From a virus (taxonomy: Duplodnaviria > Heunggongvirae > Uroviricota > Caudoviricetes), in the IMG/VR virus record IMGVR_UViG_2617270976_000018: DNA of 12,354 bases. The stretch is one strand, 5' to 3'. Below are positions 1-9,046 of this stretch, piece after piece. The position numbers and the translations under genes are program-made. The notes under the pieces are model-generated. The model did no database searches. It had not been told where the DNA came from and worked only from the letters and a program-made list of their open reading frames with translations. Numbering within the stretch: the first letter of the stretch is position 1; every line of letters begins with the position of its first letter.

Positions 1-276
1 TTACCGACTGCGGCCTGAGTTTTTTAAGTGACGTAAAATCGTGTTGAGGCCAACGCCCATAATGCGGGCTGTTGCCCGGCATCCAACGCCATTCATGGCC
101 ATATCAATGATTTTCTGGTGCGTACCGGGTTGAGAAGCGGTGTAAGTGAACTGCAGTTGCCATGTTTTACGGCAGTGAGAGCAGAGATAGCGCTGATGTC
201 CGGCGGTGCTTTTGCCGTTACGCACCACCCCGTCAGTAGCTGAACAGGAGGGACAGCTGATAGAAACAGAAGCCAC
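1..276 (-). CDS. insA: IS1 InsA (transposition regulator, N-terminal zinc finger)
   Basis: The 91-aa [43 protein letters not shown]... matches IS1 InsA as recalled. The window starts exactly at its stop codon (TAA, read as tta on the plus strand at 1-3). Confidence 0.92.
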
Positions 277-331
277 TGGAGCACCTCAAAAACACCATCA
301 TACACTAAATCAGTAAGTTGGCAGCATCACC
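1..331 (-). mobile_element. IS1 insertion sequence, partial: left end only, the rest lies beyond the window start
   Basis: insA reading frame at 1-276 (minus). Positions 309-331 are the reverse complement of the IS1 terminal inverted repeat GGTGATGCTGCCAACTTACTGAT. Homology stops sharply at 331, where cspF-like sequence begins. Confidence 0.9.
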
Positions 332-430
332 GAGCGCTGAAACATGAAGCTGGACATCGATACGACCATCGGATGGGGTGATAAGACCCTTGCCGCTTTT
401 GCCGTCAAAGGTTTTGACAATTCCTGTCAT
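332..430 (-). pseudogene. cspF: Cold-shock protein CspF-like gene, 5' fragment only, truncated by the IS1 insertion
   Basis: Minus-strand translation from ATG at 430-428 gives [33 protein letters not shown], an N-terminal cold-shock domain of the CspF/CspH type, then runs into the IS1 inverted repeat. A possible TTG start lies at 442-440 (LSRKMTG). It is divergent from cspB, as in Qin. Confidence 0.7.
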
Positions 431-544
431 TTTACGGGACAAAAAAATTCCTTAATACTGATAACTTGGCGCACTATACACACGTTCCTGAAGAAAGCTA
501 TAGTTTTTTGATGGGGTTGAAGATGGCTGGATGTCTAAAATAAA

Positions 545-958: not shown

Positions 959-1069
959 AATTCATCGCTCGTCTGTATACGATAACGAAGAAGGCTGATG
1001 CCTGAGTAGAGATACGGACAGAGTAGTGAATATTGGATCTCTTTAATAAAAAGTAAGGAGGTCCAATAC

Positions 1070-1105
1070 ATGAAACAATGGCTAGCATATTTGGCAAAAT
1101 ATTAA
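1070..1105 (+). CDS. Candidate 11-aa small ORF (MKQWLAYLAKY) behind a perfect Shine-Dalgarno; function unknown
   Basis: TAAGGAGGT at 1054-1062 is a full 9-nt match to the anti-SD complement, 7 nt before ATG 1070. There is no homology support and it is below the ORF-track size cutoff. Confidence 0.2.
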   Translation: MKQWLAYLAKY

Positions 1106-1239
1106 TCAGGAAAAGTATGCTAACCATTGTGGTGAAGTGCAGGTTTGCTGCATGAATAGTTTTACAGCAGAAGCTAACTGCTGGCATGGCAAAACAAAGT
1201 GCGTAAGTGGATGACTCCCACAAAAAGCACCACAATCTC

Positions 1240-1266
1240 AAACCCGCTCAGGCGGGTTTTTTATTA
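1240..1266. terminator. Intrinsic (Rho-independent) terminator, probably bidirectional
   Basis: AAACCCGC-TCAG-GCGGGTTT hairpin followed by TTTTATT on the plus strand. On the minus strand the same stem sits 56 nt downstream of the ynfU stop. Confidence 0.7.
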
Positions 1267-3439: not shown

Positions 3440-3629
3440 AAAGTAATCCTTGCTATGGGTGGTTAATCATGCGTTAATGGTGTTCTGGTTTGTTACAAAT
3501 TTATCTGAAGCAGTCATTGTTATAATTTTATTATTTGTACCTCTTGAGATTTCCTTGTTGGTTTTTCTCTCTGATATTTTTTTTCGGACCATTCTGCCCA
3601 AGGGCTAATTTCTTCAAAAGGTAATAATT
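3440..3629 (+). promoter_or_regulatory. cspI promoter and cspA-type 5' leader
   Basis: GCGTTAATGGTGTTCTGGTTTG (3471-3492) is paralogous to the cspB block at 568-590. An AT-rich UP-like region lies upstream, and the leader ends AAAGGTAATAATTATG. Confidence 0.45.
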
Positions 3630-3842
3630 ATGTCTAACAAAATGACTGGTTTAGTGAAATGGTTTAACCCTGAAAAAGGTTTTGGTTTCATCACGCCGAA
3701 AGATGGCAGCAAAGATGTGTTTGTCCATTTCTCAGCAATTCAGAGCAACGATTTCAAAACATTAACTGAGAATCAGGAAGTTGAATTTGGTATTGAGAAC
3801 GGACCTAAAGGTCCTGCCGCTGTTCATGTAGTGGCGCTTTGA
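3630..3842 (+). CDS. cspI: Cold-shock protein CspI (CspA family, 70 aa)
   Basis: [73 protein letters not shown]. It sits directly downstream of rzpQ, as in Qin. Confidence 0.9.
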
Positions 3843-3852
3843 GGTAGACAAT

Positions 3853-4041
3853 ATTACAAACCATATTCACTTTAGATGCCCGTGTTGTCATGGTTCCCAG
3901 TATAGAACATCATCTTTTGATGTTTCTGACATGAATCCTTTCGGGGCAAAATGTATCTTTTGTAAATCAATGATGATTACATTTGATAATATTTCACAAT
4001 ACTTAAATGCCAGCCGTCTGTCGTTGGATTTAAAAAAGTGA
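3853..4041 (+). CDS. Ogr/Delta-like four-cysteine zinc-ribbon ORF with no canonical start codon; possible AUU start, frameshift product or decayed gene
   Basis: Frame 1 is open from 3832 to the TGA at 4039-4041 and encodes ...HFRCPCCHGSQYRTSSFDVSDMNPFGAKCIFCKSMMITFDNISQYLNASRLSLDLKK. There is no ATG/GTG/TTG in frame. GAGGT (3841-3845) lies 7 nt before ATT 3853. An intrinsic terminator follows the stop. Confidence 0.3.
   Translation: MTNHIHFRCPCCHGSQYRTSSFDVSDMNPFGAKCIFCKSMMITFDNISQYLNASRLSLDLKK

Positions 4042-5930: not shown

Positions 5931-9046
<3,116 letters not shown>

Follow-up and report, generated by a model that had tools for sequence, protein, structure and literature searches.

The window, i.e., the whole 12,354-nt stretch of DNA analysed here, is the late region of a Qin-type lambdoid prophage of Escherichia coli. 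The part from 940 to 1330 matches strain CFSAN061762 at 100% identity and the listed K-12-derived strains at 99.5-99.7%, and it is found in 1640 of 5426 complete E. coli genomes. Its genes and features are collected in Table 1. The plus strand of the window is the minus strand of K-12, and the K-12 position equals 1642297 minus the window position, a conversion that was verified at the cspB start codon. In K-12 MG1655, the gap between cspB and ynfU carries no annotation. RefSeq and phage records leave this stretch unannotated or hold ORF calls only.

Table 1. Genes, RNA helices and transcript ends at the cspB locus, in window coordinates
Feature	Position	Strand	Basis or remark
IS1 insA	1-276	minus	cuts into cspF
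cspF	305-442	minus	
cspB CDS	743-958	plus	ORF list; RefSeq annotation of identical or near-identical loci
DomA, long hairpin	960-1031	plus	begins right past the stop codon
DomA outer stem	971-980 / 1009-1019	plus	covarying
H2, 15-bp hairpin	1031-1045 / 1054-1068, loop 1046-1053	plus	-18.3 kcal/mol, z = -6.3
11-codon ORF, MKQWLAYLAKY and stop	1070-1105	plus	translation; overlaps the 5' half of hairpin P0
Dominant K-12 RNA 3' ends	1071 and 1073	plus	Term-seq; 3-5 nt past H2, on or just past the ATG
P0ext	1075-1079 / 1126-1130	plus	5 bp; competes with outer P1
P0	1080-1091 / 1114-1125	plus	main stem
P1	1126-1134 / 1228-1236	plus	long-range; closes the junction of P2, P3 and P4
P2	1137-1142 / 1148-1153	plus	
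P3	1165-1170 / 1178-1183	plus	invariant loop AAGCUAA
Near-invariant unpaired stretch AAAGUGCGUAAG	1194-1205	plus	
P4	1207-1211 / 1217-1221	plus	
Intrinsic-terminator hairpin AAACCCGC-TCAG-GCGGGTTT and T run	1240-1262	plus	terminator scan
ynfU	1322-1492	minus	convergent to cspB
essQ (at 1712), ydfR, rrrQ	beyond ynfU		essQ is the next same-strand gene after cspB

The cspA-family cold-shock genes are the textbook example of mRNA-level thermoregulation through the 5' UTR. The 5' UTR and coding sequence of cspB (582-974) match the cspA thermoregulator of Rfam, RF01766, with 152 bits. This known element belongs to the same transcript and gene family as the RNA described here, and both are RNA structures attached to a cold-shock gene. 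The thermoregulator stops ~16 nt past the stop codon, whereas DomA, H2, and P0-P4 lie beyond it and have no Rfam match.

The segment downstream of cspB is strongly folded. Its predicted energy (959-1270) is -105 kcal/mol, compared with -72 +/- 4.8 kcal/mol for shuffled sequence (z = -6.9). The evidence supports the 959-1266 segment as a cspB 3' UTR that is almost wholly folded RNA and is made up of four modules, in 5' to 3' order DomA, H2, P0-P4, and an intrinsic terminator. Two of the four, DomA and P0-P4, are conserved with covariation between genera. An unusually structured cspB 3' UTR was among the readings offered by the original prediction, and it is borne out in a stronger form than was proposed. 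The features listed there are all present at the positions given, e.g., the inverted repeat CAGCAG-N7-CTGCTG at 1165-1183, which forms the two arms of P3.

DomA has an MFE of -25 kcal/mol (z = -4.0). It contains an inner hairpin, AGGC/GCCT, and a conserved interior sequence, AACGAWGAAGG...CCUGAGUAG. In an RNAalifold analysis of 15 homologues, compensatory changes are found in 8 of the 10 pairs of the outer stem. Copies of the PHB10 type do not have DomA. H2 is lineage-specific and is found only in the Escherichia lineage; most genera have no hairpin here, and phage Cyrano carries an unrelated 12-bp hairpin at this position.

The P0-P4 domain is composed of five helices and spans 1075-1236. Given 27 sequences, RNAalifold predicts all of the helices independently, with P0 followed by a P1 that encloses P2-P4. 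The MFE fold of the isolated window core contains the same helices. The covariance model has one match in the window, at 1122-1239, with 124 bits. In P1-P4, which has 25 pairs, 97.6% of cells are paired and 9 pairs have changed on both sides. None of 500 shuffles is as good, and sliding the partner by 1-3 columns leaves 25-62% paired. P0 and P0ext add 17 pairs, 92.2% paired over 21 sequences and 5 of them changed on both sides (24-46% in the slid controls).

Compensatory base changes are thus seen in every helix of P0-P4. Independent compensatory events are few per pair because sequence conservation is so high. U.G and G.U pairs are frequent, and the functional strand is therefore the plus strand. 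Outside the five helices, GUGC (1197-1200) and GCAC (1227-1230) can form an extra helix in 22 of 22 sequences, which varies on one side only.

Rfam 15 was searched by E-value over 400-2000 and at gathering thresholds over the whole window, and five homologues were scanned as well. Nothing reaches threshold in 975-1266, where the best scores are 16-23 bits against thresholds of 35-140. The equivalent stretch of the five homologous loci also has no match at threshold; their only match is the cspA thermoregulator, which covers the upstream gene in 5 of the 5 homologues tested. No cspB 3' UTR RNA or sRNA is named for this place in the full-text literature searched. Measured against Rfam 15 and that literature, P0-P4 is an undescribed conserved RNA domain.

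The element is also found outside E. coli. A distant BLAST search against phages gave 75-82% matches to 1113-1266 in two unrelated phages, Cyrano and PHB10. Both matches directly follow a cspB-like gene; the one in Cyrano lacks annotation. With one genome taken per bacterial species, a scan for a two-motif pattern found 29 loci, which come from 11 named genera (Escherichia, Shigella, Kosakonia, Enterobacter, Phytobacter, Kluyvera, Superficieibacter, Pseudescherichia, Raoultella, Leclercia, and Atlantibacter) and also from MAGs. A same-strand cspB-like gene ends ~165-215 nt upstream of the anchor motif in 26 of the 26 loci that have enough upstream DNA. The amino-acid identity of these genes is 65-100%. 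A divergent cspF-like gene is the usual companion, and roughly half of the loci also have a convergent ynfU-like gene.

Plasmids are also hosts of the element. In the E. coli plasmids p503829_100 and pJNE132847_1 a csp gene is followed by the element; 92 plasmid places matched in total, and phage-plasmids carry the csp-element pairing as well. The distribution is narrow, and all loci returned by an exact-motif scan of one genome per species are of the Enterobacteriaceae type. By the covariance model, a second cspA-type gene of the window (RF01766 match at 3484-3869, cspI by comparison with an annotated locus) is not accompanied by a copy. A 15-mer scan of viral contigs gave 36 further loci without flanking similarity. 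These were discarded as chance matches because they score at most 19 bits with the covariance model. One divergent copy (L289) scores 45 bits and looks degenerate.

The P0-P4 domain is under purifying selection. For pairs of homologues with csp genes below 85% identity, the CDS is on average 75% identical and third codon positions are 50% identical. In the same pairs P1-P4 is 86% identical and the spacer between the stop codon and P1 is 48% identical. Part of the homologue sample was gathered with patterns that force two motifs. In a metagenome scan with the pattern restricted to P1 and P2, the P3 loop and AAAGUGCGUAAG are intact in 20 of 22 variants, and the two exceptions (L305 and L317) are visibly decaying copies. 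P0-P4 therefore shows both properties by which a conserved structured RNA is generically recognized, i.e., helices with compensatory changes and a conservation that exceeds the neutral rate. No bacterial genome has been mined more thoroughly than that of E. coli K-12, yet its unannotated 300-nt gap between cspB and ynfU holds an RNA domain that is constrained more strongly than the adjacent protein gene.

Similarity of this kind could in principle reflect the recent horizontal spread of one csp cassette by phages, with no function in the element. The cassette is indeed mobile and is found in lambdoid prophages, other phages, and phage-plasmids, and a core that is 80-90% identical is compatible with recent spread. 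The coding sequences, however, have diverged to 65-75% identity, with third positions near saturation and a spacer that is unalignable, and P1-P4 has kept its identity in the same pairs. The substitutions that do occur are compensatory, and the degenerate copies that exist (L289, L305/L317) look different from the rest. An element without function is already contradicted by these observations and is considered highly improbable.

A second explanation for the conservation is that the core encodes a small cysteine-rich protein, in a frame that ends in ADRCDEVQVCCMNSLKAEANCL and a stop codon. This frame is open through P1-P3 in most homologues with a similar peptide, and in phage PHB10 it is annotated as a 41-aa hypothetical protein, QBJ00788.1. 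Yet it has no conserved start codon or SD, and its first start codon in the window is a GTG within P2. In seven lineages (Cyrano, L131, L137, L138, L143/L146, L144, and L149), 1-nt indels, early stops, or tandem insertions interrupt the frame. Nucleotide conservation is unchanged downstream of the breaks, and it runs ~60 nt beyond the stop codon of the frame. Moreover, the paired substitutions of Cyrano preserve the helices and give radical replacements in the peptide, Gln to Arg and Cys to Arg. The frame was thus rejected as the cause of the conservation, given the missing start, the seven broken lineages, and the conservation that persists past them; a protein product is given almost no credence. 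ORF calls that phage annotations place on the element are corrected accordingly.

A perfect SD, TAAGGAGGT, is located at 1054-1062, and the ATG at 1070 follows it after 7 nt, both as originally described. This sequence occurs once in the window, where 0.04 copies are expected, and is present in 9 of 200 shuffles. The ATG opens the 11-codon ORF. Translation of this ORF could yield a small protein, or a leader peptide that remodels P0 and P1. A 9-nt SD with a 7-nt spacer is improbable by chance in one window, the 11 codons are retained in 184 of 185 Qin-type copies, and the ORF overlaps the 5' arm of P0.

Translation is nonetheless very improbable. The SD lies wholly within the 3' arm of H2, where it is inaccessible and fully paired in 72% of the ensemble. 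The dominant K-12 RNA ends within or just after the ATG. In other genera the ATG is aligned to ATC or ATT, and the SD hairpin is missing from Kosakonia, Enterobacter, Kluyvera, Phytobacter, PHB10, and Cyrano, all of which keep P0-P4. The ORF is limited to Escherichia Qin-type copies, and the SD-ATG pair, whose conservation had been put forward as a check, is confined to this type.

The peptide itself shows no constraint. Seven substitutions are seen in the ORF among the 185 Qin-type copies, and each is either non-synonymous (e.g., Leu/Pro) or nonsense (one TGG to TGA). The peptide reads MKQW[L/P]AYLA[K/I][Y/S/T/P], and 4 of its 11 positions vary. Loci that were fetched through the CspB protein are only 100%-identical Qin copies, which served for this variation count and added no diversity. 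The substitution G1061A (9 of the 185 copies) weakens the SD and improves H2 by turning a U.G pair into U-A. The sequence MKQWLAYLAKY is absent from the full-text literature searched and from the Stringer 2021 supplement, in limited look-ups.

The position of the ORF also argues against a regulatory leader. It lies 3' of cspB, and the next same-strand gene, essQ, is found only past the intrinsic terminator and the convergent ynfU. A trp/his-type leader-peptide attenuator is not supported, because the ORF is not in the 5' leader of any regulated gene and because the ORF and its start signals are not conserved where the P0-P4 structure is conserved. P0ext competes with outer P1, and the terminator at 1240 takes part in neither alternative. 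The Trp_leader family of Rfam has a weak match (21.7 bits against a threshold of 41) that comes from the terminator alone. The leader-peptide element or small protein of the original prediction is accordingly not supported, and the ORF is judged to be incidental, a by-product of H2 and P0 and not a gene. As a caution for similar cases, a perfect SD followed by an ATG can be merely one arm of a hairpin.

The RNA 3' ends of this region in K-12 are available from published Term-seq data. Adams et al. 2021 list minus-strand ends at 1641226 and 1641224 (PMC7815308, supplementary file 1), which correspond to 1071 and 1073 of the window. The read scores in the three tabs, in order, are 604,404, 1,233,565, and 2,464,295; the conditions (LB OD 0.4, LB OD 2.0, and M63) are taken from the order in the caption and not from tab labels. 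Other ends listed nearby score 10^3 to 10^5, and the position moves between 1071 and 1073 by growth condition (PMC7815308). For most RNA molecules the 3' end is therefore at the ATG or just past it.

These ends have the appearance of a trimmed transcript. They lie 3-5 nt past H2, which points to exonuclease trimming, and no U tract is present, so the end looks trimmed to a protective hairpin and not terminated. No RNase E consensus is recognisable at the cut site. Because H2 is lineage-specific, the end position is not comparable across genera. Instead of the cspB mRNA, a short fragment of DomA and H2 could be the abundant RNA with this end.

Hairpin-capped mRNA 3' ends block 3' exonucleases as a general mechanism. 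H2 resembles such caps in its 15 bp, in the in vivo ends just downstream, and in the missing U tract. This mechanism accounts for H2 only, and not for purifying selection on the 160-nt domain downstream.

The intrinsic terminator is composed of a hairpin at 1240-1259 with 8 pairs (5 of them G-C) and a 4-nt loop, followed by a T run. It folds with -12.8 kcal/mol (z = -4.7). The textbook terminator of the original prediction is thus present in sequence, but no minus-strand K-12 end is listed for it (1641031-1641035) in the three Term-seq conditions (PMC7815308). Ends with scores near 800-1000 are listed close to this region (PMC7815308). Since no terminator end is listed, the downstream RNA may be scarce or decay very quickly at 37 C, or polymerases may mostly fall short of it. 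In other genera the terminator differs or is missing, and diverse sequences follow P1. A consensus scan of the plus strand from 959 to 1120 found no promoter that would belong to P0-P4, and inspection by eye found none that is convincing in other genera.

We infer, with moderate confidence, that P0-P4 acts at the RNA level as a module for control or processing of the csp mRNA 3' end. Transcripts started at the cspB promoter would extend to the terminator. The RNA would then be cleaved within the AU-rich single-stranded linker that separates H2 from P0, and the upstream product would be trimmed as far as H2. The outcome would be a hairpin-capped cspB RNA and a detached piece with P0-P4 and the terminator. 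H2 itself marks where the RNA accumulating in K-12 has its stable 3' end. P0-P4 would act in cis and control processing and stabilisation of the csp mRNA 3' end, i.e., if, when, or at what temperature they occur. It may do so by toggling between two folds, in which 1126-1130 forms P0ext with upstream nucleotides or outer P1 with downstream ones. On the phage-borne cspB branch, a conserved structured 3' UTR would add a second control point to that of the 5' UTR. The function of P0-P4 is directly testable in K-12.

The main rival is that P0-P4 and the terminator form a trans-acting 3' UTR-derived RNA that is released by cleavage upstream of P0. Its AAGCUAA loop and AAAGUGCGUAAG would act on host or phage RNAs, or the RNA would titrate Hfq, ProQ, or Csp. 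The domain does present invariant single-stranded motifs within a conserved scaffold. In all types P0 is preceded by an AU-rich single-stranded linker, the in vivo end of the upstream RNA falls shortly before P0, and the Qin type closes with a hairpin and then U6. Moreover, the A-rich junction UAAAUAAUAAAG resembles ARN-type Hfq sites in sequence and may be a candidate of this kind. As a lead only, cspB is listed among RyhB partners and PAP I-affected RNAs, with the region of cspB unspecified (PMC6191717). RNAduplex runs of RyhB on long sequences gave full-length duplexes that are uninterpretable.

Several observations make a trans-acting RNA unlikely, though it deserves weight. The terminator has no Term-seq end of its own in three conditions although weak ends nearby are listed, and it is not conserved in other genera. 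The complements of the invariant motifs are found nowhere else in the window. A five-helix domain of ~160 nt is also more elaborate than typical sRNAs, which consist of a seed and a terminator. An sRNA gene, as in the original prediction, is the less likely alternative for the P0-P4 part, and no 3' end at the terminator is listed in the Term-seq data.

Known 3' UTR-derived small RNAs of enterobacteria, e.g., CpxQ and SroC, lie in the 3' UTR of a protein gene and share the mRNA terminator. IpeX comes from the 3' region of nmpC in the lambdoid prophage DLP12, where a moron of the Q-to-lysis interval precedes it. The cspB element has the same 3' UTR location and shared terminator, and like IpeX it follows a moron in the Q-to-lysis interval. 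An upstream RNA that ends before P0 fits release by processing. Unlike these RNAs, the element has no stable RNA recorded at its terminator, the terminator is not conserved with the domain, and the structure is a five-helix junction and not a seed with a terminator. A stable RNA that shares the terminator and a tail that is conserved with the seed, the marks of an Hfq-type 3' UTR-derived sRNA, were not found.

The end at 1071/1073 could also be made by P0-P4 itself, through self-cleavage at its own 5' edge, or by RNase P acting on a hairpin substrate. The domain, a multi-helix junction with invariant unpaired nucleotides, has its first paired nucleotide 2-4 nt downstream of the abundant end. 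This suggestion is a long shot, prompted only by the position of the 3' end. Rfam ribozyme families give no match even at E <= 10. ARAGORN finds no tRNA or tmRNA in the window, and the junction, with linkers of 11 and 23 nt, does not resemble that of a tRNA. Self-cleavage leaves 2',3'-cyclic phosphate ends, which ligate poorly in Term-seq, and the shift between 1071 and 1073 with growth condition is as expected for exonuclease trimming to H2. This origin of the end is held to be very unlikely.

A bolder form of the control module is a two-state 3' UTR regulatory RNA, either riboswitch- or thermosensor-like, self-processing, or RNase-guiding. Cold, a Csp chaperone, or a small ligand would flip the RNA between P0ext and full P1. 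The flip would decide whether a phage-borne cold-shock mRNA keeps or loses its 3' end. The idea depends on 5 nt, 1126-1130, which pair with either 1075-1079 or 1232-1236, and both partners co-vary. ViennaRNA pair probabilities for P0ext and P1 show no consistent temperature trend (10-42 C, 13 homologues), and the energy model disfavours P1 in several of these.

Orphan RNA motifs with riboswitch-like or complex folds, known from comparative genomics, resemble P0-P4 in form. P0-P4 has a multi-stem junction, invariant unpaired nucleotides, covariation in every helix, and linkage to one gene family, as such motifs do. It differs in lying 3' of the gene and not in the leader, and in having no expression platform or ligand that can be named. 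A two-state RNA is considered rather improbable; if true, E. coli K-12 itself would possess a 3'-end control element of a new class. In the reverse direction, the terminator beyond P0-P4 ends the convergent ynfU, and Term-seq places a K-12 plus-strand 3' end at 1641060, which is position 1237 of the window.

The cspB terminator hairpin (window 1237-1262) also ends the transcript of ynfU, the convergent gene. Published K-12 Term-seq data place a plus-strand RNA 3' end at 1641060 (window 1237), with a score of ~1000 (PMC7815308), and the hairpin is therefore a bidirectional terminator. The same data contain a strong minus-strand end (score 55,000-123,000; PMC7815308) at the hairpin AAACCCGCTGATGAGCGGGTTTT, which directly follows ydfT/quuQ, the gene for the Q antiterminator. 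This end probably represents tR', where the transcript from the Qin late promoter terminates.

In another publication, cspB of K-12 is listed among the reported partners of RyhB and among the RNAs up-regulated in the absence of poly(A) polymerase I, the responsible part of the transcript being given in neither case (PMC6191717). Both listings could be due to the abundant RNA capped by H2, a 15-bp hairpin, or to P0-P4, the conserved five-helix domain 3' of cspB.

The P2-P3 junction linker of this element is expanded by tandem 8-nt repeats in Raoultella lignicola (L138; GAAAGCCT x7) and in metagenome loci, e.g., L317 (GAAAGCAT xN), and looks like a slippage hot spot. In L305 and L317 the junction motif is also degenerate. 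One Qin-type copy, on viral contig IMGVR_UViG_2872698443_000005 (L112), is split at the P0/P1 boundary by an insert of ~1.26 kb, probably an insertion sequence.

Cyrano-like phage-plasmids of ~100 kb carry a gene annotated cspG followed by the element (p503829_100, L288; 92 places on plasmids across E. coli genomes). These cassettes adjoin dnaE and hicAB and lack cspF and ynfU. In phage Cyrano itself (OV696614), the cspB-like gene has no annotation. Hypothetical proteins have been called over the RNA element in PHB10 (QBJ00788.1) and, on the opposite strand, in PhiR42_1 (XSB42601.1).

In two homologous cassettes, L131 and L004 (PHB10), the element is followed at a distance of ~0.45-1.2 kb by Rfam matches to the STnc100 sRNA; Rfam gave no STnc100 match in the window. 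Comparison with an annotated locus identifies the second cspA thermoregulator match in the window as cspI, a gene that lacks the 3' element. At the left end of the window (1-442), cspF is interrupted by IS1, leaving a stump of 45 codons. An intact cspF occupies the corresponding place in K-12 and strain CFSAN061762.

Coordinates of hairpin, insertion, Rfam and annotation features
Feature	Location	Strand	Remark
Hairpin AAACCCGCTGATGAGCGGGTTTT	L002 ~4357 = K-12 1642356, outside window	minus	Term-seq
Insertion in element	L112 1705-2964		~1.26 kb
insA ORF of the IS1 copy	window 1-276	minus	IS1 terminal repeat near 305-330
cspF stump	window 305-442	minus	
Second cspA thermoregulator match	window 3484-3869		Rfam
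IS009	window 8798-9012		Rfam, 128 bits
STnc100	L131 2941-3070		Rfam
STnc100	L004 3788-3989		Rfam
cspB-like gene, Cyrano	L003 2130-2345		
QBJ00788.1, PHB10	L004 2450-2575		
XSB42601.1, PhiR42_1	L005 2990-3265
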